A DNA stretch of 33,218 bases from an uncultured Roseibacillus sp. (GTDB taxonomy: Bacteria; Verrucomicrobiota; Verrucomicrobiia; Verrucomicrobiales; Akkermansiaceae), in NCBI GenBank assembly GCA_963935445.1, contig CAWWCX010000001.1, forward strand, positions 1-33,218. Reading direction: 5' to 3'. Numbering within the stretch: position 1 is the stretch's first letter; every line of letters begins with the position of its first letter. The notes below the pieces were generated by a model. That model saw only the letters and a list, made by a program, of their open reading frames with translations. It ran no database searches and was not told where the DNA came from. The position numbers and the translations under genes are program-made. Below, one piece after another: positions 328 through 30,727 of the stretch.

Positions 328-335
328 GGAGAAAT

Positions 336-10711: not shown

Positions 10712-10740
10712 AGTGTAACTGTCTTCCCAACCTTAAGCCG

Positions 10741-11457
10741 ATGGCCAATTTTTTCCCGCGCTGGACGAATGTTTTGCCGCTTAAGATCGCGGTGTGCCTA
10801 GGGGTAGCTGGGGCAGGGGTGGTAGTTGCGTTCTCCTACTACGCCACGCCCAAGGCGCAACGGGTCGGATACCAGCCCGCTCAGCCCATTCCCTATGACC
10901 ACGAGCTGCATGTGAACCAGCTCGGGATGGATTGCCGCTATTGCCATAGCTTCGTCGAGCACTCCGGGCATGCCAACATCCCGTCCGCGAGCACCTGCTG
11001 GAACTGCCACCAGCACGTGCGCAAGGACAGTGAGAAGCTCAAGCCGCTGCGACGGGCCTTTGACACGGAATACTCCGAGTATGATGGCGAGCCCATCAAG
11101 TGGGTGCGGGTCCACAAGAACCCCGATTACGTATTCTTCAACCACTCGGCGCACGTGAACCGGGGAGTTTCCTGTGCGTCCTGTCACGGCAAGGTGAACG
11201 AGATGGAGGTGGTCTATCAGGCTGAATCCCACTCGATGGGCTGGTGTCTCGACTGCCACCGCAACCCGGAGGAGCACCTGAGGCCGCTGGAAGAAGTCTT
11301 CAATCTCGACTATGACGCCGAAAAGTGGCTGGCGGAGAACAAGATCAAGGATCCGGAGTCAGGAAAGGAACTTAAGACCCAGAAAGAGCTTGGCCTCTTT
11401 CTCAAGGGGCACTGGAACATCAAGGCCAAGGAGAGCTGTTCGACCTGCCACCGCTAA
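10741..11457 (+). CDS. actA: Alternative complex III subunit ActA (pentahaem cytochrome c)
   Basis: N-terminal TM anchor and five CxxCH motifs (CRYCH, CWNCH, CASCH, CLDCH, CSTCH). First gene of the act cluster. Start placed at ATG 10741 (MANFFPRW...) rather than GTG 10696. Confidence 0.9.
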   Translation: MANFFPRWTNVLPLKIAVCLGVAGAGVVVAFSYYATPKAQRVGYQPAQPIPYDHELHVNQLGMDCRYCHSFVEHSGHANIPSASTCWNCHQHVRKDSEKLKPLRRAFDTEYSEYDGEPIKWVRVHKNPDYVFFNHSAHVNRGVSCASCHGKVNEMEVVYQAESHSMGWCLDCHRNPEEHLRPLEEVFNLDYDAEKWLAENKIKDPESGKELKTQKELGLFLKGHWNIKAKESCSTCHR

Positions 11458-11460: not shown

Positions 11461-14400
11461 ATGAGCAAACGCATCTGGCATCATCCGGAGATTCCTGTGG
11501 AGGACGAGGGTATCGCTTCCTGGCGGAGCGTGGGGGAGCTCGAGCGGAGCCCTGCATTCCAGGAACAGCTGAACCGTGAGTTCCCGGAAGGGTCCGGTCA
11601 TCTCAGTGAGGAAGACCAGCAGGCCTCCCGTCGGAGCTTTCTGAAGCTCATGGGGGCCTCGTCCGCGTTGAGCGGGTTGACCCTCGTGTCCTGTCGTCGT
11701 CCGGAGTCCTACATCGTGCCCTACAAGAAGGCACCGGAGTGGGTCATTCCCGGTAAGCCACTCTACTACGCGTCCTCTCGCCCTCGGGCGGAAGGGGCAG
11801 TTCCCCTGGTGGTGACCACCTTCGAGGGGCGGCCGACAAAACTGGAGCCGAACGGTGGGCACGGCGAGGGATGCGGTACGGACGCCCTGACGCAGGCTTC
11901 CGTTCTCAATCTCTACGATCCCAAGCGCTCCCGTGACTTCCTCAAGGGCGGGCAGAAGGCCTCGCAGAAGGAGTTTGAGGCGGTATTCTCCTCGATTGCA
12001 CAGGAGGGCGGGAAGCTCGCCGTTTTGGTGGGAGAGGACGATTGTCCGACCCGTAACCGGCTGAAGTCCGAGATAGAAACGGCCTACCCGGGATCGCGAT
12101 TTTACAGCTACGAAGCGCTTCGAGGAGAAGCCCGGCGGGAGGTTCACACGGAAGTGTTCGGAGACGGCAGCGAGGTGGTGGTGGATTTTTCCAAGGCTGA
12201 CCGGATTCTTTCGCTCGATTGTGATTTTCTGGGCGTTGACCCGATGGGGAGTCACGCGCAATTTTCGGAAAGAAGGCAAGGTGGGGCCGGGGATTACCGG
12301 CAGCAGATTGATCCCGAGGTCATGAACCGCTTGTACGCGGTGGAAACCGCCTACAGCCTGACCGGCGGCATGGCCGATCACCGGTTGCGGGCCAAACCGA
12401 GTCAGATCGCCAAGATCGCGGCGGAGGTGGCGGCAGGGCTTGATATCACGGTTGGGGGTTATGAAGCGGGCAGGATTTCGGCCGAGGAAAAGACGGCCCT
12501 CCTGGGGAGCGCTGAGAACTTCGATAAATGGATTGAGGGCTGTGTGGAGGATCTCAGGGCCCACGAAGGAAAGGCCGTAGTCCTGACCGGAAGCCGTCAC
12601 AGTGAGGACGTGCAGCGCATCGCCGTTGCCATCAACAAGAAACTTGGTGCCTACGGTGAGACTCTGGTGGCCTACGCCACTGGGCGCGAGGGATATGGAA
12701 CGATTGCGGAGCTCGAGGCCGAGGTCGATTCTGACACGACTGTTCTCTTACTTGGCCCTTCCAATCCGGTTTACGATCGTCCGGGAGGCAAGTTCGCAAG
12801 CCTCCTCAGCAGGGCGAAGGTGAGCATCCATCTTGGGCTTCGGACCGACGCCACGGCGCGGGCCAGCGATTGGCACGTGCCGGCGGCCCATTATCTGGAG
12901 AGTTGGGGCGATACCCGGACAGCGGGCGGAACCTATTCTCTGGTGCAGCCCATGATCCTGCCGCTCTACGGGGGCTTCTCGGAAATCGAGATCCTGTCCC
13001 AGCTTCTCGCCTGGCGGGCGGTGGACTGGTCCCAGGTCGATAGCGGTAATGCGGAGGACAGTATCCCTGCGCCAAAGCTCATTGCAGGAGAAGGACCTGA
13101 GGGGGCAGCGTCTCCGGCTCTTGCGGAAGTGCGCAAGACCTTCGCGCTTCCCTCCAATGCCAACGACGAGAGCGACACCGCCTGGAAGGAAGCCCTGAAG
13201 AACGGCTACCTGCAGAGCAGCAGCTACAGCAGTGTGGAGGTTGGCGATCCTGCGCCCATGCTTACCGCACGCAAGTCAGATGGAATTGAGCTCAACTTTC
13301 TGGCGGACGCCTCCGTCTGGGATGGCCGTTACATAGACAATGGCTGGTTGCAGGAAGCGCCCGATCCCATTTCCAAGCTCTCCTGGGATAATGCCGCGTT
13401 GGTCTCCCCGAAGACCGCCAAGTCGCTCGGGGTCTATGATGCGGTCCAGGAACTGGAGCCGGAGACGGATGTCCCGCTGCTTGGCAAGGTGAAGAATGCG
13501 CCCAAGCCGCTGATTGACGAGGGGCAGAACGCCGCTGCTCCGATGGTGCGGATCAAGACCGCGGCGGGGCGGATGGAAATTCCAGTTCTGGTGGCCTTTG
13601 GTCATGCTGACGACTGCATTTCGATTGCCCTGGGTTACGGTCAGGGCGCATCGGACAAGCGGGATGGGGTGGAGCCGGCAAGTGAAGATGATCCCCATGC
13701 GGTGGTTGGACTGGTAGGCGTCAATACGGGGTTCAATGCCAACCAGCTGCGAAGCGACGCCTCCTTCAGCGGAGTGGCAGCCGATGTGGCGAGGACCGGA
13801 GAAAGGTACGCGGTTGCGCTCGTCCAGGAGCACAACGCCATGAATGGCCGTGCCCTAGCACGTGAGATCTCAACCGGCGAGGTAGGCTACCACGGGAAGA
13901 CGCTCCCTTTTGAGAAGCAAGTCGCCAAGGTCCGCGAACAGGGGCCGGTGGACTCGCATGCCCCGGAAAACATCTCCCTCTACAAGCGACGTGGTTCCAC
14001 CACGTGGGAGGGGGACAAGGACAAGCAGGAGGATCTCATCAGTGATAAGATCCACCAGTGGGGAATGGCCATTGACCTCAACACATGCACCGGCTGCAAC
14101 GCCTGCCTGGTTGCCTGTCAGGCAGAGAACAACATCCCGATCGTAGGTAAGCAGCAGGTTGCGATGGGACGAGAGATGCACTGGGTGCGGATGGACCGTT
14201 ACTTCGCCACGCCTGTCTACGAGCACGACGAGAAGGGTTACATCAAGAAGGAGGGAGGCAAGAAGGTGCCCGTCCCCGACTGGGTGAAGGAGAACCCGGA
14301 GATGGTGCCCCAGCCGGTTTCCTGTGTGCAGTGTGAGAATGCGCCCTGCGAAACTGTGTGCCCGGTCAATGCCACCGTGCATACCGAGGAAGGGCTTAAC

Positions 14401-15030
14401 TCGATGGCCTACAACCGGTGCATCGGGACCCGCTACTGTGCCAACAACTGTCCCTACAAGGCGCGGCGGTTCAACTATTTCGATTACAACAAGTACAACC
14501 CTCTGGTTGCGCACAACCTCTACAAGGGGCCAGCTGGTGAGACACAGCGAGGTACCGCACCCCATCTTCAGCGTAACCCGAATGTCTCGGTACGCATGCG
14601 CGGAGTGATGGAGAAGTGCACCTATTGTGTGCAGCGTCTGGAGAGCGCCAAGATCAAGCAGAAACAGATCGGGCGCGACAAGACTCTCCGCTCCGGGGCG
14701 AAGTCGACCGAGGTAGCTGTCAGTGCGGAGGATCTGCGGATCAAGCCGGATTCCGTCAAGGTCGCCTGTCAGGATGCCTGCGACGCGAACGCCATCAGCT
14801 TTGGTAACCTGCTCGACAAGGAGGAGGCCAAGGTCTGGAGGGCGAAGTACAAGGGTGAGAAGAAGAACGACAAGGGCTTTGTCGAGGTCATTCACAACCC
14901 GCGAAACTACGACGTTCTGCAGTATATCGGGACGGCCCCGCGGACCAGCTATCTGGCTCGCGTGAAGAACCCCAACCCGGACATGCCGGATGCGGAATAC
15001 CGTGGGCTGGCCACCATTCACACCGCTTAA
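11461..15030 (+). CDS. actB: Alternative complex III subunit ActB (fused molybdopterin-oxidoreductase-like and 4Fe-4S ferredoxin domains)
   Basis: 1189 aa. Tat-type motif SRRSFLKLMGASSAL and a large MopB-like N-domain. The C-domain has Fe-S cysteine clusters CTGCNACLVAC, CVQCENAPCETVCP, CIGTRYCANNCP and CTYCVQR. Confidence 0.93.
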   Translation: MSKRIWHHPEIPVEDEGIASWRSVGELERSPAFQEQLNREFPEGSGHLSEEDQQASRRSFLKLMGASSALSGLTLVSCRRPESYIVPYKKAPEWVIPGKPLYYASSRPRAEGAVPLVVTTFEGRPTKLEPNGGHGEGCGTDALTQASVLNLYDPKRSRDFLKGGQKASQKEFEAVFSSIAQEGGKLAVLVGEDDCPTRNRLKSEIETAYPGSRFYSYEALRGEARREVHTEVFGDGSEVVVDFSKADRILSLDCDFLGVDPMGSHAQFSERRQGGAGDYRQQIDPEVMNRLYAVETAYSLTGGMADHRLRAKPSQIAKIAAEVAAGLDITVGGYEAGRISAEEKTALLGSAENFDKWIEGCVEDLRAHEGKAVVLTGSRHSEDVQRIAVAINKKLGAYGETLVAYATGREGYGTIAELEAEVDSDTTVLLLGPSNPVYDRPGGKFASLLSRAKVSIHLGLRTDATARASDWHVPAAHYLESWGDTRTAGGTYSLVQPMILPLYGGFSEIEILSQLLAWRAVDWSQVDSGNAEDSIPAPKLIAGEGPEGAASPALAEVRKTFALPSNANDESDTAWKEALKNGYLQSSSYSSVEVGDPAPMLTARKSDGIELNFLADASVWDGRYIDNGWLQEAPDPISKLSWDNAALVSPKTAKSLGVYDAVQELEPETDVPLLGKVKNAPKPLIDEGQNAAAPMVRIKTAAGRMEIPVLVAFGHADDCISIALGYGQGASDKRDGVEPASEDDPHAVVGLVGVNTGFNANQLRSDASFSGVAADVARTGERYAVALVQEHNAMNGRALAREISTGEVGYHGKTLPFEKQVAKVREQGPVDSHAPENISLYKRRGSTTWEGDKDKQEDLISDKIHQWGMAIDLNTCTGCNACLVACQAENNIPIVGKQQVAMGREMHWVRMDRYFATPVYEHDEKGYIKKEGGKKVPVPDWVKENPEMVPQPVSCVQCENAPCETVCPVNATVHTEEGLNSMAYNRCIGTRYCANNCPYKARRFNYFDYNKYNPLVAHNLYKGPAGETQRGTAPHLQRNPNVSVRMRGVMEKCTYCVQRLESAKIKQKQIGRDKTLRSGAKSTEVAVSAEDLRIKPDSVKVACQDACDANAISFGNLLDKEEAKVWRAKYKGEKKNDKGFVEVIHNPRNYDVLQYIGTAPRTSYLARVKNPNPDMPDAEYRGLATIHTA

Positions 15031-15051: not shown

Positions 15052-16545
15052 ATGGCAGATACCGCCACCAAGACTGCAAGTGAGGCGTCCGCGCCCCGGG
15101 AAGTGAAGCTCCCGGTGCTGGAGCGTGAGAAGCTTGTTCTCAACAAGCGGTCCTACCACTGGATTACCGAGCGCGTCTGCGGGGTGATTGAGAACAGGCA
15201 GCCCCGGATCTGGTGGGCCCTCTTCATTCCGACCGTCATCATGGCGATCGTGGGCGTGGGCGGAGGGCTGATCTACCTGGTGACAACCGGGGTGGGAGTC
15301 TGGGGCAATACGAACCGCGTGATGTGGGGGTGGCCGATCGTAAACTTCGTGTTCTGGATTGGAATTGGCCACGCCGGAACCCTCATTTCCGCGATCCTCT
15401 TCCTGACCCGCCAGAACTGGCGGACATCGATCAACCGGGCGGCCGAGGCGATGACGATCTTCGCGGTGATCTGTGCCGGAATCTTCCCGGCCTTCCACGT
15501 GGGAAGGGTCTGGATGGCCTGGTATCTCGCGCCCATTCCGAACGCGAATGCGATCTGGCAGAACTTCAAGTCGCCGCTCCTCTGGGACGTCTTCGCGGTC
15601 TCGACCTACTTCTCGATCTCACTCGTGTTCTGGTTCCTCGGGATGGTGCCCGACCTGGCAACCATCCGGGACCGTTGCAAGCGCGGGGTGAAGAAGGCCC
15701 TTTACGGGTTATTCTCCCTTGGGTGGCGCGGTAGTAACCGGCATTGGAGCCACTACGAGATGGCCTACCTTCTCCTCGCGGCGCTCTCGACCCCGCTCGT
15801 CCTTTCGGTGCACTCGGTGGTGAGCTTTGACTTCGCAACCTCCATCGTGCCCGGGTGGCACACCACGATTTTCCCGCCCTACTTCGTGGCGGGAGCCATC
15901 TTCGGAGGGTTCGCGATGGTGCTCACGATCATGATCCCGGCCCGTTTCTTCTACGGGTTGGACGACATGATCACGATGAAGCACATCGACAACATGGCCA
16001 AGATCATCCTCCTGACGGGTTCGATCGTCGGCTATGCCTACCTGATGGAGCTTTTCGTGGCCTTCTACTCGGGGGCCAAATACGAGATGGCGGCCTTCAC
16101 CTACCGGATCACCGGTCCCTACTGGTGGGCCTACGTGGCGATGATGAGCTGTAACGTGCTTTCACCCCAGCTCTTCTGGTTCAAGTGGTGTCGTGAGAAC
16201 CTCTGGGTCGTCATGGGAGTGTCGATGTGTGTGAACGCCGGGATGTGGTTCGAGCGCTTTGTGATTATCGTGACCACCCTCGCGCGTGACTTCATGCCCG
16301 CGAACTGGAAATACTACAACGCAAGCTGGGTGGATATTGGCCTGTTCCTGGGAACGATCGGCCTGTTCACCGCGCTGTTCCTTCTCTTCCTGCGTTTTCT
16401 GCCCTGTATCAACATCGCGGAGGTCAAGTGGGCCAAGGAGGAAAGCGATGTACACTTCGACGACAAGAAGGCGCACCCCGACGAGGGCACGGTTGTGGAA
16501 GCCTCCTACCAGCACGAACTTGAGAAAGGAACTGCCGAAGTCTGA
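15052..16545 (+). CDS. actC: Alternative complex III subunit ActC (NrfD/PsrC-like quinol-interacting membrane subunit)
   Basis: 497-aa polytopic membrane protein of NrfD type directly after actB. Its stop overlaps the actD start (TGATG). Confidence 0.9.
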
Positions 16546-17102
16546 TGAGCACATCTGTCAAACGCGTTTACGGCTACCTGGCCGAGTTTGAAAGCGCCTC
16601 CGCCCTCTACAAGGCGGCCCAGAAGGTGCGTGATGCCGGATTCCGGAAGTGGGATTGCTACACGCCCTACCCGGTGCATGGACTCGACTCCGCCATGGGC
16701 CTGAAGCGCTCAATCCTGCCTTACTTCGTATTCTTCGGCGGTGTTACCGGGCTCATCACCGCCTTCATCCTGGCATACGTGACACAGGTGGGAATCTACC
16801 CCACGGTGGTTCAGGGCAAGCCGGCCAACATCTTTACGGTGCCGGCATTCTTCCCGATCATGTTCGAGCTCACCGTGCTCTTCTCCGGATTTACGACTCT
16901 CTTTGCCTGTCTGGGCCTCTGCCAGCTTCCACGCTGGAACCATCCGCTCTTTGCAAGCCGGCAGTTTCACCGGGTAACCGACGATGGATTCTTCATCGCG
17001 ATTGAAGCGCGGGATCCCAAGTTCTCGGCGGAAGGAACGAAGGGGTTCCTCGATGAAATCGGGGGCGATAATATTGAACTGGTCGAGGACGACGGAAAGT
17101 AA
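16545..17102 (+). CDS. actD: Alternative complex III subunit ActD (DUF3341-type membrane protein)
   Basis: N-terminus YGYLAEFESASALYKAAQKVRDAGFRKWDCYTPYPVHGLD and two TM helices are characteristic of ActD. Its position in the cluster agrees. Confidence 0.88.
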   Translation: MSTSVKRVYGYLAEFESASALYKAAQKVRDAGFRKWDCYTPYPVHGLDSAMGLKRSILPYFVFFGGVTGLITAFILAYVTQVGIYPTVVQGKPANIFTVPAFFPIMFELTVLFSGFTTLFACLGLCQLPRWNHPLFASRQFHRVTDDGFFIAIEARDPKFSAEGTKGFLDEIGGDNIELVEDDGK

Positions 17103-17887: not shown

Positions 17888-19225
17888 ATGGCACACGAAC
17901 TGGTCACATCAGCAGATATCCCGGTCGACGGCGAAAAGCTGGAAGCCGACAAGCTGAGCCGCATCAAGGTGGTGTCCCTGGGCATCTTTGGTGTCGGGTT
18001 CATCCTGAGTATCCTGTTGCTCCTCGGGGCTTTCGGGCGGGGGATCCAGGGATCCTACAGCTTCTCCTGGCTTTATGCCTTTTTCTTCTTCGCCACCCTT
18101 GCTCTGGGTGGCTGCTTCTGGACCCTGCTTCACAATGTCTCCAATTCCGGCTGGGGAGTCTCAGTGCGACGGGTGATGGAGAACGTCGGATACGTCTTTC
18201 CCTGGATGATCATCCCCGTTATCCCGCTCCTTCTGCCGCAGGTTCAGGAATTCCTCTACGAATGGATGGAGAAACACCGGATGGCCGGGGGCGGAATCGG
18301 AAAGTCGGCTGCCGATGGCCTGCATCATGGAGAACACACCGATCACCTGCTCTCCAGCAAGTACTGGTATCTCAACATCAGCTTCTGGTACTTCCGGGTG
18401 ATCGCTTATTTCGCGCTTCTGGGGTTTGTAATTCACTTTTTGCGCAAGCTGTCCGTCGACCAGGACATGGACCCGGAACCGGGTGTGAGCCGTCTTTACC
18501 GCGCACGCTTTCACTCCTGCTGGGGGGTTCCCGTGTTCGCGGTTGTGCTCACCTTCCTTGCCATCGATCTCGTCAAGGGACTCGACTACAAGTGGTTCTC
18601 CACGATGTGGGGGGTCTACGTGTTCGCGGGGAGTGCTCTCAACGCGATGGCGGTTATCATCCTCGTTACGATCGCCCTCCGCCGCATGGGCTACCTGAAG
18701 AACGTGGTCGGTCCCGAGCATGACCACCTGATGGGCAAACTGGCCTTTGCGTTCACGGTGTTCTGGGCCTATATATCCTTCGACCAGTATTTCCTCTACT
18801 GGTATGCCAACATCACGGAAGAGACCCGCTACTTTGTCCTTCGTAACACCGGCGGGTGGAACTACGTGAGTATCCTTTTGGTCTTTGGACACTTTGCCGC
18901 ACCTTTCCTTCTCCTCATCCGACAGGATCTCAAGCGTCGGAACGGCTATATGATCATTGTCGCCGGCTACCTCCTCTTCATGCACATGATCGATGTCTAT
19001 CACATGATCATCCCCGAACGCGGGCCTTCCGTGAGCAAGATCCTCAATCCCGATGACCCGGAGAAGTGGGTCCTCTGGCTCAATGGTTCGCTCGTGGGAG
19101 ATATCCTCGCCTTTGTGACGGTGGGGGCCTTTTTCCTGTTCGTCCTCCTGCGCAACCTCGGGTCGGCCGCTCTCTATCCGCACCGCGACCCGCGTATTCT
19201 CGAATCAGCCAACGTGCATAACTGA
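17888..19225 (+). CDS. actF: Alternative complex III subunit ActF (second NrfD-like membrane subunit)
   Basis: 445-aa polytopic membrane protein following actE. Its stop overlaps the next start (TGATG). Confidence 0.85.
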   Translation: MAHELVTSADIPVDGEKLEADKLSRIKVVSLGIFGVGFILSILLLLGAFGRGIQGSYSFSWLYAFFFFATLALGGCFWTLLHNVSNSGWGVSVRRVMENVGYVFPWMIIPVIPLLLPQVQEFLYEWMEKHRMAGGGIGKSAADGLHHGEHTDHLLSSKYWYLNISFWYFRVIAYFALLGFVIHFLRKLSVDQDMDPEPGVSRLYRARFHSCWGVPVFAVVLTFLAIDLVKGLDYKWFSTMWGVYVFAGSALNAMAVIILVTIALRRMGYLKNVVGPEHDHLMGKLAFAFTVFWAYISFDQYFLYWYANITEETRYFVLRNTGGWNYVSILLVFGHFAAPFLLLIRQDLKRRNGYMIIVAGYLLFMHMIDVYHMIIPERGPSVSKILNPDDPEKWVLWLNGSLVGDILAFVTVGAFFLFVLLRNLGSAALYPHRDPRILESANVHN

Positions 19226-19995
19226 TGGACTCGGCGAACGACAATCCTCTCAAGCGATTCTCCACCTTCTGGGTCGGGCTGGTTCTTTTTGCCGCTTTCG
19301 GGCTGGTGGGTCTGGTCCTGGGTATGATCGGTTTCAACAAGCCTGTCAAAAACGGCTACGACGAGGTGAACTCCGAGCGCCGTGAAACAATCAGGGAAGA
19401 GGTCGATAAGACTCACTCAGGAGCCAGGGAGTTGGCGGACAAGAGCTTCGAACGGGTGGGTGCCGTTTATCTCGAGAGTGCTCCCGTGGCGGTGGAAAAG
19501 CCCGAGTTCATTCTGCCGGGTTCTGCCACCCAGCTCGGCAAGGCGTCCGGCGGAACGGGAGTGAAGGTTCCGGCAGGATTCCCGGAAGTGGCCGCCGACG
19601 CGCCCATCGACCCGGCCGTGATGGCCAAGGGGCAGGCTCTCTACGCGGTCTGCTCAGCTTGCCACGGACCCAACGGAGAGGGGATGTATCACATCAACAA
19701 GACGGGACCGCCGCTCGCAGACTCGGAGTGGGTCGTGGGCCCGGTGGCCAATTTGATCGCCATCCAGTTCCGCGGCTTGAACGGGACGATCGAGGTGAAC
19801 GGCAAGTCCTACACCCCGGTTGCCCCAATGGCTCCCCTTCCTCTCGACGACGAGTCGGTTGCGGCCGTGCTCACTTATATTCGAAACAGCTTTGGGAACA
19901 AGGCCTCGCCGGTCACCGCGGAGCAGGTGAAAGCCATGGAAGGGGAGAAGGGCAAGCCCATGTTGAGCCCGGCCGATCTCATTCCGCCAAAATAA
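19225..19995 (+). CDS. Membrane-anchored monohaem class I cytochrome c
   Basis: One N-terminal TM helix (FWVGLVLFAAFGLVGLVLGMIGF), a linker, then a c-domain with CSACHG, PPLADSEWV and TYIRNSFGN. Translationally coupled to actF. Confidence 0.85.
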   Translation: MDSANDNPLKRFSTFWVGLVLFAAFGLVGLVLGMIGFNKPVKNGYDEVNSERRETIREEVDKTHSGARELADKSFERVGAVYLESAPVAVEKPEFILPGSATQLGKASGGTGVKVPAGFPEVAADAPIDPAVMAKGQALYAVCSACHGPNGEGMYHINKTGPPLADSEWVVGPVANLIAIQFRGLNGTIEVNGKSYTPVAPMAPLPLDDESVAAVLTYIRNSFGNKASPVTAEQVKAMEGEKGKPMLSPADLIPPK

Positions 19996-20013: not shown

Positions 20014-21510
20014 ATGGTCACAGACACTGACAGCGATACGGCGTTGCAAAAGGATCTTGAGCTGCGGGCAAGAATTGACCGCTCGCTGCGGCACCCCGTG
20101 ATGTTCTTCTTTACCAGCGGGGCGGCGTGGCTGGCAGTGGCGGTCCTGCTCGGATTCATTTCCTCATTCAAGTCGCACGATTCGACCTTCCTCGCGAACC
20201 TGGGCTTTCTGAACTATGGGCGGGTGTACCCGGCCCACCTCACGGTCCTGATCTACGGCTGGGGTTGCCAGGCGGCCTTCGGACTCATCATCTGGCTCAT
20301 GGCGCGCCTCTCCCGCAAGGAGTGCACTTCGGTCGGGGTGATTCTTACCGCCGGACACCTCTGGAATTTCGGGGTGAGCGTGGGGGTGCTCGGAATTCTT
20401 GCAGGATATGGATCGGGACGCCCCTGGATGGAGTTTCCCGCGGCAGTCTGGCCCTTGCTGCTGGTGAGTTACTTTTTCATCACAATCTGGTCCTTCATCC
20501 AGTTCCGTTGCAGTGAAGGGGGCAAGACCTATGTGGCGCAGTGGTACCTGGTCGCAGCACTCTTCTGGTTTCCCTGGATCTACCTGAGCGCCCACCTGTT
20601 TGTCTTTGTTTTCAACGGGCACCCCGTCATGGCCGCCGGCGTGAATGCGTGGTTCAAGTATGCGCTTATTTTCCTGTTCTTCACCCCGGTGGCTCTTGGA
20701 ACGGCCTACTACCTTGCGCCCAAGGTCACGGGGCGTCCTGTTTACAGTTACACGCTGGCGCTTTTCGGATTCTGGGCCCTTGCGGTCATTGGCCCCTGGG
20801 CTGGAATGCAGAAGCTGGCGGGCGGTCCACTCCCGCAGTTTCTTCCCTATCTGGGTGCGGCGGCGACCGTTCTCATTCTCATTCCGGCCCTCGCGGTGGG
20901 AGTGAACATTCTCCTGACATTGCGTGGACACGAGGCCGAGGTGGCCGCCAGTCCATCGCTGCGCTTCACCATCGGGGGTATTGTCAGCTTCGTGATACTC
21001 GGGGTGATGGGGCTGGGCCTGAATACTCCGGCATCCCTCAAGATGACTCAGTTTTCACTCGCCGGGTATGGCTTTGAGGTGCTTGCCATTTATGGCTTCT
21101 TCAGCATGTGCGCCTTCGGGGGGATCTATTTTATCGTCCCGCGGATTACCCGGCGTGAGTGGTTGTCGCGTCGTTTCATCTCGTGGCACTTCTGGCTCAG
21201 TCTCTACGGGATCGGAACCGTGGTGGTCTGCTCGATCCTGGGCGGGCTTTTCCAGGGAGCGGCCCAAGAGGCTTACAACTCCGCTTGGTCTGATGCCGCC
21301 ACCCGAAATTACGCTTACAATGTCGGAACAACCGTGGCCTGGGGTTTAATCATCTTCAGTAGTCTCTTCTTTCTCCTCCATCTCCTTCTGATGTGGGCCC
21401 GTCTCGGTCGGCGCAGTCAGCATCCGACTCTCCTGAAGGGTGACCATCACGAGGATTCGCCCCACGGGCCGGATGGCGATCTCGATGAACTCCAAACCGC
21501 GGAAGCCTGA
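20014..21510 (+). CDS. CcoN-like (cbb3 oxidase subunit I homologue) polytopic membrane protein lacking the CuB, haem b3 and second haem b histidine ligands
   Basis: 498 aa, about 12 TM helices. Collinear with CcoN at YGRVYPAHLTVLIYGWG, AYYLAPKVTGRPVYSY and SWHFWLSLYG. The canonical WWYGH, GPHH and GHVH ligand motifs read AWFKY, GMQK and GFEV. See findings. Confidence 0.75.
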   Translation: MVTDTDSDTALQKDLELRARIDRSLRHPVMFFFTSGAAWLAVAVLLGFISSFKSHDSTFLANLGFLNYGRVYPAHLTVLIYGWGCQAAFGLIIWLMARLSRKECTSVGVILTAGHLWNFGVSVGVLGILAGYGSGRPWMEFPAAVWPLLLVSYFFITIWSFIQFRCSEGGKTYVAQWYLVAALFWFPWIYLSAHLFVFVFNGHPVMAAGVNAWFKYALIFLFFTPVALGTAYYLAPKVTGRPVYSYTLALFGFWALAVIGPWAGMQKLAGGPLPQFLPYLGAAATVLILIPALAVGVNILLTLRGHEAEVAASPSLRFTIGGIVSFVILGVMGLGLNTPASLKMTQFSLAGYGFEVLAIYGFFSMCAFGGIYFIVPRITRREWLSRRFISWHFWLSLYGIGTVVVCSILGGLFQGAAQEAYNSAWSDAATRNYAYNVGTTVAWGLIIFSSLFFLLHLLLMWARLGRRSQHPTLLKGDHHEDSPHGPDGDLDELQTAEA

Positions 21511-21518: not shown

Positions 21519-22250
21519 ATGACCTTCAAAGCCTTCATGTCTGCGCTGGCGGTGAGCTTCGCCGTCCCATGGTTTCTCATCATCGTGGTCCCCTACGGAA
21601 AGATGCGTGATCTCGAGCCGGTGCACTTCGAGCAGGACAGTGATGGTCGCGATGAGGTATACGTGCCCCGTCGCTCGGGCAGGATTTCAACCGGTTCCGC
21701 GGTATATGGAGCCAATGGGTGCTACGTCTGCCATACCCAGATGATTCGCAAGGGCTTTGCAGGGTCGGAACTGGGTCGGCCGGACTGGGCAGGTTTCCGC
21801 GTTCAGGATGAGAGCGGTGTCAGCATCAACACGTCCCGGGAAACGACGCCGTATGACTTTGTCGGGGAAGAGTTTGCCCATGTCGGGATCATGCGTGTCG
21901 GGCCGGATCTCAGTAACGTTGCGGGACGCGTTCAGAAATATCTGGATCACCCGCTCACCAAGGCGGACAGCCCGGAGGGTTGGCTATACCTGCATCTCTA
22001 CAACTCAGCGCTCAAGACGGTAACCTTGAACAACAAGTTCGGGTGTCCGCGACAGACTCATCTTTTCAAGGAACAGCCCCGCGTAGGGCAGGGCAGCCCG
22101 GATGCCGTTCCGGGGTTGGAAAATGAGGGGATGGAAGTCCTGCCCACTGGAAATGCCAAGGCGCTGGTCAGCTACCTCCTTTCCCTGAAGAAGGACGATG
22201 CGGTGCCTTACAGTATCAATTACAGCCGCGATAAGAAGAAGGCCGAGTAA
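21519..22250 (+). CDS. CcoO-like monohaem cytochrome c (cbb3 oxidase subunit II homologue)
   Basis: N-terminal TM helix, GCYVCHTQMIR (compare CcoO GCxGCHSQMIR), RVGPDLSNVAGR (CcoO GPDLARVGGR) and WLYLHLYN (CcoO WHRAHLYNP). Confidence 0.8.
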   Translation: MTFKAFMSALAVSFAVPWFLIIVVPYGKMRDLEPVHFEQDSDGRDEVYVPRRSGRISTGSAVYGANGCYVCHTQMIRKGFAGSELGRPDWAGFRVQDESGVSINTSRETTPYDFVGEEFAHVGIMRVGPDLSNVAGRVQKYLDHPLTKADSPEGWLYLHLYNSALKTVTLNNKFGCPRQTHLFKEQPRVGQGSPDAVPGLENEGMEVLPTGNAKALVSYLLSLKKDDAVPYSINYSRDKKKAE

Positions 22251-22270: not shown

Positions 22271-23059
22271 ATGGCCCATTCCAAGGATTCCGAAAACCAG
22301 CGTCCCGACCTCGAGGACAGCACCAACGTGGTGGAAGCGCACGCCTCCCTGCTGGCCACCGGAGCGGCCCAGTCGAGGGAGAGACGTATTGAGGAAACCG
22401 GGATGGAACCGGTGTCCCTGTGGGTCTTCCTCGGTAGCGCGATCGTTCTCCTGGTAGGAGGGGCGGTAGTGGGTGCGGGGGGTAAGCTGTTCAACTACGA
22501 CCCCCATCCAACCAGCTACGTGCGGCCGGAGTATATCAGCGATGCCGACAGTGGGCCGACGATCGGGCCCATCATGGAAGCCCTCATGAAGCGGGGTAAG
22601 AATATCTATACCAAGTGCAGCGGCTGCCATGGTTCCAGCGGAGCGGGGGACGGAGGCAACCGGCCTCCTCTTGCGAATTCCGAGTGGGTCACGGGGAGCC
22701 CCGAGCGTCTCGCAATGATCATCCTGAACGGGGTGAAGGGACCGATCGTGGTTGACGGCAAGACCTACGGGGCGGACGTCATGGACGGGCAGGGGCCGCT
22801 TACTGCGGATGAACTCGCTGGGATCATGACATACGTGCGCAACAGCTTTGGAAACGAGGTGGGCGACGTGGTGACTCCCGAGCAGGCCGCGGAGGCCATC
22901 AAGATATCCAATGCCCGTGCCGGAGCGCACATGAGTGCCGACGAATTGAACGCGAACCACGACAAGGTGCTCGAGGGTGATCCCATCGACCCAAGCACGC
23001 CGGTGGACTTTGAAACCCTCAAGCCCGTGGAGGGGTCAGCCCCCGCTCCAGCCGAGTAA
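22271..23059 (+). CDS. Membrane-anchored monohaem class I cytochrome c (paralogue of 19225..19995)
   Basis: One TM helix (LWVFLGSAIVLLVGGAVVGAG) and a c-domain with CSGCHG, PPLANSEWV and TYVRNSFGN, collinear with the c-domain of the 19225 gene. Confidence 0.85.
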   Translation: MAHSKDSENQRPDLEDSTNVVEAHASLLATGAAQSRERRIEETGMEPVSLWVFLGSAIVLLVGGAVVGAGGKLFNYDPHPTSYVRPEYISDADSGPTIGPIMEALMKRGKNIYTKCSGCHGSSGAGDGGNRPPLANSEWVTGSPERLAMIILNGVKGPIVVDGKTYGADVMDGQGPLTADELAGIMTYVRNSFGNEVGDVVTPEQAAEAIKISNARAGAHMSADELNANHDKVLEGDPIDPSTPVDFETLKPVEGSAPAPAE

Positions 23060-23080: not shown

Positions 23081-24988
23081 ATGAGTGCAGAAGCGGCAGC
23101 AGATCACGGTCATGGTCACGACGACCATCACGACGACCATCACCACGACCCCCCGTTCTATAAGAAGTATATCTGGTCCACCGATCACAAGGTGATTGGT
23201 ATCCAGTATGGGATTACCGCGCTGCTTTTCCTGGCGTTCGGATTTTTCCTGATGATGGTGATGCGCTGGAGCATTGCCTATCCCGAAGAGCCTCTCCCAT
23301 GGTACCTGAACTGGATTTTCAGCGAGGAATGGAAGGCCCGGTGGCTGGTCGATGGCAAGGTTACCGGTGATACCTACAACATGTTCGGTGCCATGCATGG
23401 AACCATCATGGTTTTCCTTGGTATCGTGCCTCTTGGATTCGCGGCCTTCGGGAACTTTGTCACCCCACTCCAGATTGGAACGGTCGACATGGCTTTCCCG
23501 CGCCTGAACATGCTCAGTTACTGGTGCTACCTCGTAGGTGGCCTCGTCATGTGTGCGAGCTTCTTCATGGAGTCCGGAGCGGCAAAGTCCGGTTGGACGA
23601 ACTACTCTCCCCTCGCCAACTTCGCGGATGGGCAGATTGTGAACCAGTTCCTGGCGGGTCAGACGCAATGGCTCCTCGGAATGGTCTTCCTGATCACATC
23701 CTCTCTCCTCGGTGCGGTCAACTTCCTGACTACTCTCATCAACCTGCGTGCCAAGGGCATGACCTGGATGCGAATGCCCTTCTTCTGCTGGGCCATGCTT
23801 GTGACCGGGTTCCTCCTTCTCCTCGCCTTTCCGCCCCTCGAGGTGGCCGCCCTGATGCAGTTGATGGACCGGACGGTCGGTTCGAGTTTCTTCATGCCCA
23901 GCGGACTCTACACCTCCGGCTCAGGTGTCGTGGAGGCGTCCGGGGGAGGCAGCCCGCTGCTCTATCAGCATCTTTTCTGGTTCCTTGGGCACCCGGAGGT
24001 CTACGTCCTCCTCCTGCCCGCGATCGCCTGTGTGGCGGAAATCATACCGGTAAACACACGGAAGCCACTCTGGGGCTACAAGCCCATGGTCTGGTCGATC
24101 GTGATCCTTGGTTTCCTGAGCTTCATCGTATGGGCCCACCACATGTATCTTACCGGGATGGGACCGGTTGTTTCCACATGGTTCCAGACCACTACGGTGT
24201 TGATTTCGGTGCCCTCGGTCATCCTGCTGACATCCATGATCGTGTCTCTCTGGGGAGGCTCGATCCGATTCAACGTTCCGATGTTGTGGGCAGTTGCGTT
24301 CCTGCCCATGTTCGGAATCGGGGGCCTGACAGGCCTTCCCCTCGCTTTCAACCTGGTGGACCTGCACCTGCACGATACCTATTACGTGATCGGGCACTTC
24401 CACTATGTGGTGGCCCCCGGGGTGCTCTTCGGTCTCTTTGCCGGCATCTACCACTGGTATCCGAAGATCACAGGTCGGCACATGAATACGACTCTCGGGC
24501 ATCTCCATTTCTGGCCGTCCCTGATTTTCATGAACGTTCTCTTCTTCCCGATGCTCATCCAGGGCATGGCCGGGTTTCACCGGCGGTGGTATAACGGAGG
24601 TGACGCCTACCTGGCCAAGGCAGCCGGAAGCGAGAACATCTTTGGCAATACCGTGGCGGAATGGATTCACCTCAATCCGGTGATGACCTGGGGTGCGTTC
24701 CTGCTCGCCCTGTCCCAGATTCCCTTCTTCATCAATTTCTGGTCCAGCCTGTTCGTCGGGGAAAAGATCAAGAACGACAACCCCTACGATGCGACCACTC
24801 TCGAGTGGGCGACTCCTACCCCGCCGCCGCATGGGAACTTCACCTTCGACGTGGCGGCCTACCGTGGTCCATACGAATACAGCCGTGATGACCACGAGGG
24901 GGACTTCTTTCCCCAGTGGGAAGAACCCAGGCGAGAGAAACCAGCCGAGCAACCGGATCCTGAACCGGAAGCCGAGCCAGCCCCGTAA
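23081..24988 (+). CDS. ctaD: Haem-copper oxidase subunit I, A-type (aa3-type cytochrome c oxidase)
   Basis: All canonical motifs are present: STDHKVIGIQY, AMHGTIMVF, VDMAFPRLN, GWTNYSPL, FWFLGHPEVYVLLLP, VWAHHMY and HLHDTYYVIGHFHYV. Confidence 0.96.
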   Translation: MSAEAAADHGHGHDDHHDDHHHDPPFYKKYIWSTDHKVIGIQYGITALLFLAFGFFLMMVMRWSIAYPEEPLPWYLNWIFSEEWKARWLVDGKVTGDTYNMFGAMHGTIMVFLGIVPLGFAAFGNFVTPLQIGTVDMAFPRLNMLSYWCYLVGGLVMCASFFMESGAAKSGWTNYSPLANFADGQIVNQFLAGQTQWLLGMVFLITSSLLGAVNFLTTLINLRAKGMTWMRMPFFCWAMLVTGFLLLLAFPPLEVAALMQLMDRTVGSSFFMPSGLYTSGSGVVEASGGGSPLLYQHLFWFLGHPEVYVLLLPAIACVAEIIPVNTRKPLWGYKPMVWSIVILGFLSFIVWAHHMYLTGMGPVVSTWFQTTTVLISVPSVILLTSMIVSLWGGSIRFNVPMLWAVAFLPMFGIGGLTGLPLAFNLVDLHLHDTYYVIGHFHYVVAPGVLFGLFAGIYHWYPKITGRHMNTTLGHLHFWPSLIFMNVLFFPMLIQGMAGFHRRWYNGGDAYLAKAAGSENIFGNTVAEWIHLNPVMTWGAFLLALSQIPFFINFWSSLFVGEKIKNDNPYDATTLEWATPTPPPHGNFTFDVAAYRGPYEYSRDDHEGDFFPQWEEPRREKPAEQPDPEPEAEPAP

Positions 24989-26998: not shown

Positions 26999-27019
26999 TT
27001 GCTTCTGATCCGACCGGCC

Positions 27020-27394
27020 ATGGCTGATACACCTGAAGACATCAAGAACGCCCAGAAGAAGTATCTCCTGATCGGGCTTATTCTATTCATCTTCACCGTC
27101 GTGACGGTGGCGGTGGCGACCGTTCCCTGGCTTGACTTTGGCGAGCATGGCTTCGACGGAATCGACGCCGTCATCGGCCTCCTGATCGCCAGCGTAAAGG
27201 CGACCCTCGTGGGTGCGATTTTCATGCACCTCAATCACGAGAAGCGGACTATTTACGGTCTGATTGTGCTTGGGGTCCTGATGGGCCTCTGTCTGGTGGT
27301 CCTGACGGGATGGTCCTTCATCGACCCCATTGAGTATGGCAGCCCCGTGGAAGGGGACGGCTTTTACAACCCGCCGGAAACAGTAAACCAGTAA
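27020..27394 (+). CDS. ctaF: Prokaryotic cytochrome c oxidase subunit IV family protein
   Basis: About 124 aa and 3 TM helices. KKYLLIGLILFIFTVVTVAVA and ASVKATLVGAIFMHLNHEKR fit the small subunit IV (CtaF/CyoD-like) pattern. The track start TTG 26999 was replaced by ATG 27020. Confidence 0.75.
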   Translation: MADTPEDIKNAQKKYLLIGLILFIFTVVTVAVATVPWLDFGEHGFDGIDAVIGLLIASVKATLVGAIFMHLNHEKRTIYGLIVLGVLMGLCLVVLTGWSFIDPIEYGSPVEGDGFYNPPETVNQ

Positions 27395-27407: not shown

Positions 27408-27611
27408 ATGTCCCTTCGTGGATTTCACATCGTATTTATTACCGTAACGACCATCCTCAGTCTCTTTCTGGCGGGATGGGCGATCTTTCTGGCGCCAGCC
27501 AGCGGGGGGGTAGTGAGGACAATCCTGATGGTGACCGGGTGTGCCGGGGCGATCCTCTTCCCAGTCTACGGAATCTATTTCTACCGCAAGGCGAGAAAAC
27601 TCATCCTCTAG
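27408..27611 (+). CDS. Small two-TM membrane protein (67 aa), function unknown
   Basis: ORF packed 13 nt after subunit IV, with two hydrophobic helices and a basic C-terminus (YRKARKLIL). Support comes only from operon context and hydrophobicity. Confidence 0.55.
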   Translation: MSLRGFHIVFITVTTILSLFLAGWAIFLAPASGGVVRTILMVTGCAGAILFPVYGIYFYRKARKLIL

Positions 27612-27632
27612 CAAGTAACCGGAATCCTGATC

Positions 27633-27827
27633 ATGAATGTTGAGTCCATCCAGCTAGCCTGCACGACCTGCGCGAACGCTTTCAAGGAAGGCGGAGGTGA
27701 TGCCGCCGGCTGGTCCATCCTCTTCATGCTGGCGATGATTGTTCCTGTCCTGGGGGCTACGGGCGTCTGCATGATCCGGATCGTGCGCCGTGAGCGGGAA
27801 GCACTCGATCCCAAGTACGCTGATTAA
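27633..27827 (+). CDS. Small single-TM protein (64 aa) with N-terminal CxxC motif, function unknown
   Basis: ACTTCANAFKEGGGDAAGWSILFMLAMIVPVLGATGVCMI, then a basic stretch RIVRRERE. Packed 21 nt after the previous ORF and 45 nt before coxII. Confidence 0.55.
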   Translation: MNVESIQLACTTCANAFKEGGGDAAGWSILFMLAMIVPVLGATGVCMIRIVRREREALDPKYAD

Positions 27828-27872: not shown

Positions 27873-28745
27873 ATGGACCTCCTCTTCTCCTCCACTCTCC
27901 TCGACTACATGGGCATGCCGGAGAACTACGCGGAACATGGAGGCAGTGTGGACCACATGATCGAGATCGTGCACTGGTTCATGATCGCACTCTTCGTGGG
28001 CTGGACCTCCTTCTTCCTGTTTGCCTGCTGGAGATTCTGGCAGCGGCGTCAGGCGAAGGCGTCCTACCATGGAGTGCGGAACCACGTGACAACCCACCTT
28101 GAGATCGGGGTAGCAATCTTCGAGGGAGTGCTGCTTCTTGGTTTCGCTTTCCCGCTCTGGGCGGAGCGGACCGATCGATTTGAAGACATCCAGGCCCAGG
28201 ACCCTGTCCGTGTCAGGGTGATCGGCTATCAGTTCGCGTGGAGCTACCATTACCCGGGGGCGGATGGAAAGTTCGGCCGGATCGACCGGCATCTCGTCCA
28301 GAAGCCGGGGGATGCATGCATCGACCCGGAGGATCCCAATGGCTGGGATGACTTTGTCTCACCCATCCTCAAGATTCCGGTCGGAGAGCCCTGCATCCTG
28401 CAGGTGACCTCCACAGACGTGATTCACGGTTACGCGATCGTGCCGATGCGGATCCAGCAGGATGCCATCCCGGGAACGGACATTCCGATGTGGTTCCGTC
28501 CCTTGAAGGAGCTGGAGACCAGCGTGGTGTGTGCCCAGCTGTGCGGGGAGCAGCACGGGGACATGGTCGGAATCATGCAGGTGGTCAGCAAGGGTGCCTT
28601 CACCTCATGGTCGGAGGAGCAGAGCAGCGCGGCCTACGACCGGAACTCGAAAGCCGCCGCAGCGGTTGAAGAAGTCGCCGGCGGGGCAGAAGACGTTGAA
28701 GGGGGTGCTGCCGCAGCTCCCGATACCCTGCCAGCGGGTGGTTAG
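27873..28745 (+). CDS. ctaC: Cytochrome c oxidase subunit II (CuA cupredoxin, no fused cytochrome c domain)
   Basis: Two N-terminal TM helices. CuA ligand pattern DVIHGYAIVPMRIQQDAIPG ... CAQLCGEQHGDM (H, C-x3-C-x3-H-x2-M). Low-complexity Ala/Gly/Glu C-tail and no CxxCH. Confidence 0.9.
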   Translation: MDLLFSSTLLDYMGMPENYAEHGGSVDHMIEIVHWFMIALFVGWTSFFLFACWRFWQRRQAKASYHGVRNHVTTHLEIGVAIFEGVLLLGFAFPLWAERTDRFEDIQAQDPVRVRVIGYQFAWSYHYPGADGKFGRIDRHLVQKPGDACIDPEDPNGWDDFVSPILKIPVGEPCILQVTSTDVIHGYAIVPMRIQQDAIPGTDIPMWFRPLKELETSVVCAQLCGEQHGDMVGIMQVVSKGAFTSWSEEQSSAAYDRNSKAAAAVEEVAGGAEDVEGGAAAAPDTLPAGG

Positions 28746-28869: not shown

Positions 28870-29556
28870 ATGCTCATCCGGGACTTGCCCGAACAGAAAC
28901 GTCCGCGGGAAAAGATGATCAGCGAGGGGGCCGGGTCCCTGACGGATGCGGAGCTCCTCGCCATCTTCCTGCGGGTGGGCGTGAAGGGAGAGAGCGCGAT
29001 TGCGGTCGGGCAGCGCCTGCTGGCGACTCATGGAGGACTGGCCGCACTCGGTGCGCTCGATATCGCGCAACTGACCCAGGAGCATGGCCTCGGCCAGGCC
29101 AAGGCTGCCCAGCTCGCGGCCGCGTTTGAGCTGGGGGCCCGGGTCGCGCGGGAAAAGGCGCCCCTTCGCCAGCTTGATTGTCCCCGGGCCGCCTTGGAGG
29201 TGTTCGGACCACAGCTGCGGCATCTCGCCCATGAAACCCTTCGCGTGGCACTTCTTGATACCCGCCTGCAGGCGACTCGCTTCCTCACGCTCTCGGAGGG
29301 TAATCTCAATGCGACGGTTGCTCATCCCAGGGACATTCTGCACCCTGTCATCCTGCACCGGGCTTATGGCTTTCTTCTCGTGCATAATCACCCCTCGGGA
29401 GACCCGTCGCCGAGCAGGGCTGACCGCGAACTGACCCGGCGTGTGGCGGCGGCAGCGTCACTCCTGCAGGTGGAGTTTCTTGATCACCTCATTATCGGAA
29501 AGGCATCGGAACGTAACGAAGGCTACTTTTCGTTCCGGGACAGTGGTCTGCTCTGA
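28870..29556 (+). CDS. radC: RadC-family JAB/MPN-domain protein
   Basis: N-terminal LPEQKRPREKMISEGAGSLTDAELLAIFLRVG (HhH region) and C-terminal JAMM motif LVHNHPSGDPSPSRADRELTRR. Confidence 0.92.
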   Translation: MLIRDLPEQKRPREKMISEGAGSLTDAELLAIFLRVGVKGESAIAVGQRLLATHGGLAALGALDIAQLTQEHGLGQAKAAQLAAAFELGARVAREKAPLRQLDCPRAALEVFGPQLRHLAHETLRVALLDTRLQATRFLTLSEGNLNATVAHPRDILHPVILHRAYGFLLVHNHPSGDPSPSRADRELTRRVAAAASLLQVEFLDHLIIGKASERNEGYFSFRDSGLL

Positions 29557-29594
29557 GAGGAGGTCGCGGTCCCGGCGCGGGACGGAGGCTCCTC
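29557..29594. repeat. Nested GC-rich inverted repeat between convergent radC and the ABC permease gene, a possible bidirectional or factor-dependent terminator
   Basis: GAGGAG...GTCCCG-gcg-CGGGAC...CTCCTC starts right after the radC stop. There is no U-tract on either strand, so terminator function is uncertain. Confidence 0.3.
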
Positions 29595-29737
29595 AGGAGG
29601 ACGGGCGGGTGGATGTCTGGCCCCATCAGCCTCGGGGAACGGTCCAGCTCATGAGAGGGAGCGGCGAAGGGAGCGAGCCGGCGAGGATCAAGCGACGGGC
29701 CGCCCTGATTCCTGTTCTTGATGTCCGGCGAGGCGGT

Positions 29738-30724: not shown

Positions 30725-30727
30725 TAT

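Follow-up and report, generated by a model that had tools for sequence, protein, structure and literature searches.

The analysed stretch of DNA (the window) comprises 33,218 bp from the start of contig CAWWCX010000001.1 of the assembly GCA_963935445.1, obtained from an uncultured Roseibacillus sp. It contains an 18-kb block of tightly packed genes on the plus strand (intergenic gaps from -1 to 21 bp), in which the genes of alternative complex III (ACIII) are followed by genes for several cytochromes c and for an aa3-type oxidase. Between these two complexes lies the gene at 20014–21510 bp, whose product, referred to here as CcoN*, is a homologue of CcoN, subunit I of the cbb3 oxidases. Five of the six ligand histidines of a functional C-family oxygen reductase are replaced in this protein, and only H75 is left. 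The data described below lead us to regard CcoN* as a cofactor-less and apparently non-catalytic derivative of the cbb3 catalytic subunit, which seems to be fixed in the ACIII cluster across Verrucomicrobiota.

CcoN* and its former active site

CcoN* is encoded on the plus strand by an uninterrupted open reading frame (ORF) of 498 codons, giving 498 aa with zero internal stops. The Pfam profile COX1 (PF00115) matched residues 29–436 with a score of 149.3 bits (cutoff 34.8; E-value 2e-43), which places the protein in the haem-copper oxidase (HCO) superfamily as a homologue. In the NCBIfam collection, only cbb3 models were matched, and their scores were far under the cutoffs (103 bits for TIGR00780 with a trusted cutoff of 583). 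This cutoff alone is a weak criterion, because the intact ACIII-linked relatives described below also miss it, with 239–247 bits. A phmmer search against all PDB chains returned only cbb3 CcoN subunits (E-values from 5e-24 to 1e-19; top matches 9g6b_A, 6xkw_n and 3mk7_A, from 5e-24 to 6e-20), and no structure nearer to CcoN* than canonical cbb3 was found among these chains. Modeling using AlphaFold2 led to a model with a pLDDT of 87.2 and a pTM of 0.88. In the Foldseek comparison, the model matched Pseudomonas stutzeri CcoN (3mk7_A) with TM-scores of 0.84/0.90, a root-mean-square deviation of 2.7 Å and 20% identity; the TM-scores for subunit I of NOR, ba3 and aa3 enzymes were 0.7–0.77. Because the model superposes on 3mk7_A, the fold is judged to be intact. 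The original prediction, made from the letters of the window, had proposed that the product aligns with CcoN along its length, and this was confirmed by the profile, the phmmer matches and the superposition: CcoN* is a full-length homologue of cbb3 subunit I with a predicted 12-helix fold.

The ligand columns were read from HMMER pairwise alignments and from an independent MAFFT alignment that included canonical CcoN. At the columns corresponding to residues 75/216/260/266/267/354/356 of CcoN*, canonical CcoN reads HHYHHHH, whereas CcoN* reads HYGQKFV. The helix II ligand of haem b, His60, is retained as H75 (PLHTN in canonical CcoN, PAHLT in CcoN*). The CuB ligand His207 is replaced with Y216 (WWYGH / WFKY) and the CuB pair His257/His258 with Q266/K267 (WAGPHHL / WAGMQKL), while the haem b3 ligand His345 and the haem b ligand His347 are replaced with F354 and V356, respectively (TIGHVH / GYGFEV). 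The cross-linked Tyr251 of helix VII corresponds to G260. The motifs YYxxPK...RPxYSY and HFWL are retained, and the C-terminal DHHED tail is present in the translation as originally described.

Losses were also found beyond the ligands. Glu122 and Arg57, which we take to be residues of the Ca2+ site and of the haem-propionate site, are replaced with P137 and Y72 (the letters were verified in the canonical row), and Trp203 is replaced with A212. The K(C) channel is presumably formed by T215, Y223, S240, H243, Y251, N289 and Y317; these letters were verified in the canonical sequence. The channel residues S240, Y317 and E323 correspond to A249, F326 and M332 in CcoN*, and Thr215, Tyr223 and Asn289 are retained as T224, Y232 and N298. 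H243 corresponds to G252, and glycine is also found there in the intact ACIII-linked relatives. Thus, neither the Ca2+/haem-propionate site and K(C) channel nor the set of six histidines and the cross-linked Tyr of a functional CcoN is preserved. On the other hand, the intact ACIII-linked relatives (n = 9) retain every ligand and supporting residue examined.

The replaced ligand positions and the retained H75 named in the original prediction were the same in the phmmer and MAFFT alignments, and no alignment restored the six histidines. Misalignment was rejected as a cause, since three independent alignments and the structural match agree. Together with the further residue losses, the ligand columns support the earlier statement that no CuB/haem b3 centre can be formed. 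Because ligand histidines, the cross-linked Tyr, the Ca2+ Glu and channel residues are all replaced, CcoN* cannot be an oxidase.

A word-indexed search revealed more than 1,199 cluster representatives (90% identity) of CcoN* from independent assemblies. Conservation was counted in the best 120 of them (59–92% identity), among which the named organisms belong to Roseibacillus, Luteolibacter, Akkermansiaceae and other Verrucomicrobiota. H75 is invariant (120/120), A or G stands at position 260 in 119/120 sequences, and at the other five ligand positions His was found only once at 266 and once at 267. At positions 216, 354 and 356, formerly occupied by ligands, small and hydrophobic residues replace one another freely. 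A polar cluster was found in the former active site, namely K/R215 (118/120), Q266 (116/120), K/R267 (118/120) and E/D355 (120/120). All four positions are at or beside former ligand positions, and the cluster is specific to the Verrucomicrobiales clade. It may be a salt bridge that fills the void or a new functional site.

In total, 142 of the 498 positions are conserved in at least 97% of these homologues. The dN/dS ratio of CcoN* was 0.046 in comparison with the closest orthologue, at the locus L001 (92% amino-acid identity, dS 0.94). In the same comparison, the ratio was 0.035 for ActC, 0.032 for ActF and 0.020 for CoxI. Over seven orthologue pairs it ranged from 0.035 to 0.145, and the marks of a pseudogene were not found. 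Comparison of the orthologues thus gave the outcome expected originally, with the substitutions common to the 120 homologues. These ratios show CcoN* to be a maintained gene under strong purifying selection.

Several further residues of CcoN* are invariant, namely H27, H115, H392, H456, H470 and H484, which by sequence position appear to lie mostly towards the cytoplasmic side. A C-terminal motif, LMWxRLGRRSxHPTLL (tail 459–474), is conserved in the clade of the window. Except for H392, these histidines and the tail motif are clade-specific and were not found in the intact or other ligand-less relatives. The clade-specific histidines and the tail could form a metal site or a docking surface.

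Gene order around CcoN* and its relatives

The gene block of the window, all on the plus strand, consists of the following features.

10696–11457, plus strand: ActA, pentahaem cytochrome c of ACIII; five CXXCH motifs, Pfam Cytochrome_C7/c3; first gene in the conserved block
11461–15030, plus strand: ActB, Fe-S/molybdopterin-like ACIII subunit; 1189 aa with Fer4 domains; position conserved in related loci that reach ActB
15052–16545, plus strand: ActC, NrfD-like quinol-binding membrane subunit; Pfam NrfD, 86 bits; dN/dS as given above
16545–17102, plus strand: ActD; Pfam ActD (PF11821), 202 bits
17118–17879, plus strand: ActE, monohaem cytochrome c; one CXXCH, Pfam Cytochrome_CBB3
17888–19225, plus strand: ActF, second NrfD-like membrane subunit; 445 aa, polytopic, without a Pfam match; assigned by its position in all related operons
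19225–19995, plus strand: cytX, membrane-anchored monohaem class I cytochrome c; CSACH motif, Pfam Cytochrom_C; in the variable slot between ActF and CcoN*
20014–21510, plus strand: CcoN*, ligand-less cbb3 subunit I homologue; Pfam COX1, ligand columns, AlphaFold2 model and dN/dS
21519–22250, plus strand: CcoO-like monohaem cytochrome c with the axial Met replaced by Cys176; N-terminal transmembrane helix, GCYVCHTQMIR and GPDL aligned to CcoO
22271–23059, plus strand: cytY, membrane-anchored monohaem cytochrome c in the CcoP position; CSGCH, Pfam Cytochrom_C/Cytochrome_CBB3, weak match to TIGR00782 (ccoP)
23081–24988, plus strand: CoxI, intact A-type haem-copper oxidase subunit I; Pfam COX1, 438 bits; TIGR02891, 554 bits
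25010–26998, plus strand: CoxIII with a charge-rich hydrophilic insertion of ~450 aa; COX3 homology at the ends only
26999–27394, plus strand: CoxIV, prokaryotic subunit IV; Pfam COX4_pro
27408–27827, plus strand: two small hydrophobic ORFs, 27408–27611 (67 aa) and 27633–27827 (64 aa); from the ORF listing
27873–28745, plus strand: CoxII with a CuA site and without a cytochrome c domain; Pfam COX2, CuA motif HGY...CAQLCGEQHGDM in the translation, no CXXCH

The actABCDEF genes are present in order, with ActF recognized by position and polytopic nature only. The CcoO-like gene begins 8 bp downstream of CcoN* and is followed by cytY, which corresponds to the arrangement of a cbb3 operon (ccoN, ccoO and a further cytochrome c). 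The CoxI translation shows GHPEVY, WAHHMY, GHFHY and the helix II His; since all canonical A-type motifs are carried by CoxI, the aa3 enzyme is the real terminal oxidase of the operon. The neighbours were originally described as ACIII upstream of CcoN*, a CcoO-like gene downstream and the aa3 oxidase after it, which is correct, while the order within the aa3 part had to be emended to CoxI–CoxIII–CoxIV–(two small ORFs)–CoxII, with CoxII last.

To describe synteny, one genome per GTDB species was scanned, giving 589 loci, and the best 80, all from Verrucomicrobiales, were examined. CcoN* was matched in 80/80. Wherever the contig was long enough, all 80 loci had the order ActABCDEF–(cytX)–CcoN*–CcoO-like–cytY–CoxI–III–IV–II, and cytY followed the CcoO-like gene wherever the locus extended that far. 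Of the related loci, 74 reach beyond CcoN* on the upstream side, and in 21 of these cytX had no match. Among the more distant relatives listed below, the slot between ActF and CcoN* contains small proteins without a Pfam match in L081 (9481–9982) and L082, and two cupredoxins (Copper-bind) in L090 (7629–8976).

In the CcoO-like protein, the haem motif C68YVCH (CXXCH) is retained, and the axial-Met motif SxMP of CcoO reads FGCP, where Cys176 is encoded by nt 22044–22046. This Cys is invariant in the CcoO-like proteins of Verrucomicrobiales (81/81). The axial Met is kept in five other lineages, including L084 and L086 with a ligand-less CcoN, and both CXXCH and the SxMP Met are retained in four lineages whose CcoN is ligand-less. 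The replacement of Met with Cys implies His/Cys or otherwise altered haem ligation in the putative haem site of the window protein.

To assess the wider family, 1.84 billion 50%-identity representatives were searched exhaustively using HMMER. At E ≤ 1e-30, 306 clusters were found, and the best 150 were taken; their scores were 185–618 bits, whereas canonical CcoN had reached only ~88 bits when PDB chains were searched. The full set of six His and Tyr is present in only 4 of the 132 full-length representatives. In most of the others, the helix II His is lost too, usually to Ala. All clusters with a named organism belong to Verrucomicrobiota (Verrucomicrobiales, Opitutae, Limisphaerales, Verrucomicrobiia), except for one basal intact cluster from Burkholderiales. 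This cluster, P0237 (Ottowia, Alicycliphilus), is the most basal intact relative in the neighbour-joining tree and contains "cbb3 subunit I" proteins of 543–551 aa, with 79 members in the 90%-identity cluster.

Genomic contexts were read for nine members outside the Verrucomicrobiales clade of the window, with residues given in the order of columns 75/216/260/266/267/354/356.

L081 (Nibricoccus): HHYHHHH, intact; ActABCDEF, small ORFs, CcoN, FixO and cytochrome c, then no oxidase genes
L087 (P0294): HHYHHHH, intact; the same block, then COX2–COX1–CtaA–CtaB–COX3
L088 (9001–11111): HHSHHHH, cross-link Tyr lost; ACIII block; axial Met of CcoO replaced with Glu (SIEP); no adjacent aa3
L082: HRYHHHH; ACIII block
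L085: HNAQRYH, with the two haem b His retained; ACIII block and aa3
L089: all binuclear-centre His lost, helix II His kept; ACIII block and aa3
L090: ligand-less; ACIII block and aa3; cytX slot with two cupredoxins
L084: ligand-less; third cytochrome gene is the last of the operon; no adjacent aa3
L086: ligand-less; ActE–ActF–small ORF–CcoN*–FixO–cytochrome c, contig ends soon after

Intact, partly decayed and fully ligand-less forms are all located in the ACIII operon after ActF. By its residues, L088 looks like a state of early decay. The TIGR00780 scores follow the degree of decay: ~240–247 bits for intact forms, ~160 for L085 and L084, and 103–122 for the window and L089. In the neighbour-joining tree rooted on canonical CcoN, most intact forms are basal and the ligand-less radiation is nested in the ACIII-linked clade; the intact P0200 falls among ligand-less sequences. 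The simplest reading is that Verrucomicrobiota ancestrally had an ACIII–cbb3 operon, that CcoN lost its catalytic centre step by step in many lineages, and that the module of CcoN, CcoO and a cytochrome was always kept beside ACIII during this decay. The proposal that CcoN* comes from a former cbb3 module is well borne out, since in Opitutales and other Verrucomicrobiota this gene position behind ActF is taken by intact HHYHHHH relatives. It was also revealed that the module tracks ACIII rather than aa3, because the ligand-less L084 has no adjacent aa3 and the intact L087 coexists with aa3. The possibility that the module is an accessory of aa3 was rejected, since the ligand-less L084 occurs with ACIII alone.

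Possible role of CcoN*

In cbb3 oxidases (3MK7), CcoO and CcoP are anchored by single helices that pack against CcoN, and for this reason CcoN* has most plausibly been kept as a platform for cytochromes. The reading that we favour, with a little more confidence than doubt, is that CcoN* descends from an ancestral ACIII–cbb3 unit and now serves in the membrane as a non-catalytic platform for c-type cytochromes, through which electrons travel from ACIII to the oxidase. According to this model, CcoN* would no longer reduce O2 and would be retained for the assembly of single-helix cytochrome anchors in the membrane. CcoN* and the cytochromes would form a fixed electron-transfer appendage of ACIII with its output to a terminal oxidase. 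In the window, the electrons would be received by the intact aa3 oxidase of the next genes downstream, in which CoxII is devoid of a cytochrome c domain. A relay of this kind fits the retention of CXXCH and the SxMP Met in the CcoO-like protein of the four ligand-less lineages, and small periplasmic carriers in the cytX slot (a cytochrome c here, cupredoxins in L090) together with the simple CoxII also count in its favour. As the axial Met of the CcoO-like protein is now Cys in the clade of the window, the main wire there would be formed less probably by the CcoO-like haem than by cytX/cytY, both ordinary class I cytochromes with CXXCH.

Several points weigh against this platform model. The original proposal, in which CcoN* as a scaffold would anchor the CcoO-like cytochrome within a supercomplex of ACIII and aa3, is a hypothesis, and the association was seen as co-occurrence of the genes in operons. 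The neighbour-joining tree is crude, being built from Kimura distances without support values, and was used only for the statement that intact forms are basal. The conserved charged cluster and the clade-specific histidines and C-terminal tail suggest that CcoN* has acquired a function in addition to scaffolding. With the invariant H75, CcoN* might still bind one haem. Finally, the potential of a His/Cys haem would be too low to suit a relay towards CuA, and the CcoO-like haem in the clade of the window is probably not an ordinary high-potential relay; it may be structural or serve as a sensor.

Some of these features could be explained if CcoN* were neofunctionalised, with the emptied pocket rebuilt as a polar or ionic site, maybe beside a five-coordinate haem b on H75. 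Proton or ion conduction, quinone binding or new chemistry coupled to the turnover of ACIII would be its function, and scaffolding would be secondary. The four polar positions are nearly invariant while the former ligand positions 216, 354 and 356 vary, H75 is invariant, and the channel residues T224, Y232 and N298 are kept. However, the cluster could be a mere salt bridge filling the cofactor void, and it is not kept across the wider ligand-less family, in which 266/267 are often deleted or replaced with Ala/Pro. In addition, sister clades without H75 (L or F) still keep Q-K/R, and the haem-supporting R57 and E122 are lost. We consider this explanation unlikely but worth keeping in view. The pair of CcoN* and the CcoO-like protein could otherwise sense redox state or gases (O2, NO, CO, sulfide) via a His/Cys haem c and in this way gate the electron flow through the ACIII–aa3 assembly. 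Haems with His/Cys ligation typically occur in sensors and sulfur enzymes rather than in high-potential relays, and the invariance of Cys in Verrucomicrobiales, with Met in other lineages, points in this direction. Nevertheless, in the Pfam and NCBIfam scans neither CcoN* nor the CcoO-like protein nor the genes around them showed a domain for signalling output, iron ligation by Cys176 is putative, and other clades pair a ligand-less CcoN with a Met-bearing CcoO; Cys176 therefore does not explain the retention of the family, and a sensor is improbable. A broader form of these ideas is that the HCO fold was rebuilt without a redox centre into a new working part of an ACIII megacomplex, rather than left as an inert relic. 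As electrons move from ACIII to aa3, the passage of protons or ions would be gated or coupled by the buried Lys/Gln/Lys/acid network, acting with the His/Cys CcoO-like haem, or the two would serve as a sensor of gas or redox state. This would be the first such case, and we regard it as a rather doubtful possibility.

Catalysis and decay can be set aside with much greater certainty. An O2 or NO reductase with unconventional metal ligands could be imagined from the HCO fold, the CcoO-like electron-entry subunit and the retained H75. Yet there is no His at the five positions of the binuclear centre and second haem b, the cross-linked Tyr and Ca2+ Glu are missing, the former ligand positions 216, 354 and 356 hold variable small or hydrophobic residues, and the operon has an intact aa3 oxidase besides. 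An oxidase with alternative ligands was rejected on these residue losses, and such an enzyme is very improbable. The loss of ligands and a TIGR00780 score far under the cutoff would also be expected of a decaying pseudogene, or of an assembly or sequencing artefact of a once-active ccoN. This explanation was rejected and its probability is practically negligible: the ORF is full-length, dN/dS is ~0.05 (0.046 in the closest pair), the same substitutions are found in the 120 homologues, there are more than 1,000 independent representatives, and synteny is invariant in 80 species-level loci. The original view that the gene is not a decaying pseudogene was therefore right.

Comparison with known systems indicated which features of the locus are unusual. 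Canonical cbb3 CcoN (P. stutzeri 3MK7 chain A) shares with CcoN* full-length homology, the 12-helix fold and the gene order of N, O and a third cytochrome. However, CcoN* is only 20–22% identical to it, it lacks five of six ligand histidines as well as the cross-linked Tyr and the Ca2+ Glu, and three of the seven presumed K-channel residues are changed, with the H243 position as a fourth. The closest ligand-bearing relatives, with 35–38% identity, are the ACIII-linked intact cbb3 proteins of Nibricoccus (L081) and P0294 (L087), which occupy the identical position after ActF and are followed by FixO and a monohaem cytochrome c. They differ in keeping HHYHHHH, R57, E122, W203, T215, Y223, S240, N289 and Y317, and the axial Met is present in their CcoO.

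ACIII operons followed by oxygen-reductase operons, as well as ACIII–caa3 supercomplexes, are known (PMC5928083). Direct transfer from ACIII to the oxidase via tethered c-type haems is established in Rhodothermus marinus and Flavobacterium johnsoniae (PMC5928083; Sun et al. 2018 as cited in PMC6688271). The window resembles these ACIII–caa3 systems in that an ACIII operon precedes an A-type oxidase operon. Unlike the window, they have no CcoN/CcoO-derived genes between ACIII and the oxidase; here three extra membrane-anchored cytochromes and CcoN* are interposed. In R. marinus, the relay haem is located on the oxidase subunit IIc, whereas CoxII of the window lacks a cytochrome c domain.

Altered active sites have been found in other HCO members through environmental genomics, and according to Murali et al. 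2024 (PMC11214002), gNOR is the first family of HCOs in which even a single histidine of the active site has been replaced. In contrast to gNOR, the CcoN* family has replaced all histidines of the binuclear centre and cannot bind that centre. An analogue of the proposed role is ActB1 of ACIII, a cofactor-less homologue of molybdopterin enzymes that serves as a structural subunit (PMC5928083). In both cases a catalytic scaffold would have been kept after cofactor loss inside a larger electron-transfer complex, although ActB1 belongs to another protein superfamily. In the openly searchable literature, no description of an HCO subunit I family without binuclear-centre ligands was found, nor was a reported case of a cofactor-less HCO catalytic subunit serving as a structural subunit.

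As far as we found, the ligand-less CcoN* family of Verrucomicrobiota, encoded with ACIII, appears to be undescribed. The conservation of active-site histidines across the HCO superfamily is a working assumption, and it is contradicted by this large family under selection. The living intermediates (HHSHHHH, HRYHHHH, HNAQRYH and others) represent a natural series from a respiratory enzyme to a structural subunit. Our data suggest an unrecognised architecture of the link between ACIII and the oxidase in Verrucomicrobiota, a phylum abundant in soil, freshwater and marine habitats; cultured carriers include Luteolibacter algae (KCTC 22040, locus L036) and Roseibacillus ishigakijimensis. Those of the proteins that carry a functional name in NCBI or JGI records, including all named ones among the best 120, are called "cbb3-type cytochrome c oxidase subunit I", and the ACIII-adjacent "cbb3" of Verrucomicrobia has been taken at face value, for example in Methylacidiphilum (PMC6688271). 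Since ligand-less proteins are labelled in this way, claims of high-affinity microaerobic respiration in Verrucomicrobiota that are based on ccoN matches are likely false positives unless the ligand columns are checked.

Other features of the window

CoxIII consists of 662 aa, and its residues ~121–590 are 25–42% charged. In related operons, the length of COX3 is 201 aa (L087), 291 aa (L085), 424 aa (L089) and 544 aa (L090). The two small hydrophobic ORFs of the window occupy an apparent gap of 478 bp between CoxIV and CoxII, and two unannotated ORFs of 66–87 aa fill the same interval between COX4 and COX2 in L085, L089 and L090. These ORFs probably encode extra subunits of the oxidase or supercomplex.

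In one metagenome-assembled genome (Akkermansiaceae JTS-AC276), the ACIII–CcoN*–aa3 block was found on each of two contigs (L019 and L043, the latter starting at ActC), which represents either a true duplication or a mixed bin. The flanks of the block look ordinary. The region 1–10335 contains genes related to sugar metabolism, namely a xylose isomerase-like TIM barrel, an FGGY kinase, GFO/IDH/MocA oxidoreductases and ThuA. The region 28870–33218 contains RadC and further ORFs, including one on the minus strand that resembles an ABC-type permease.

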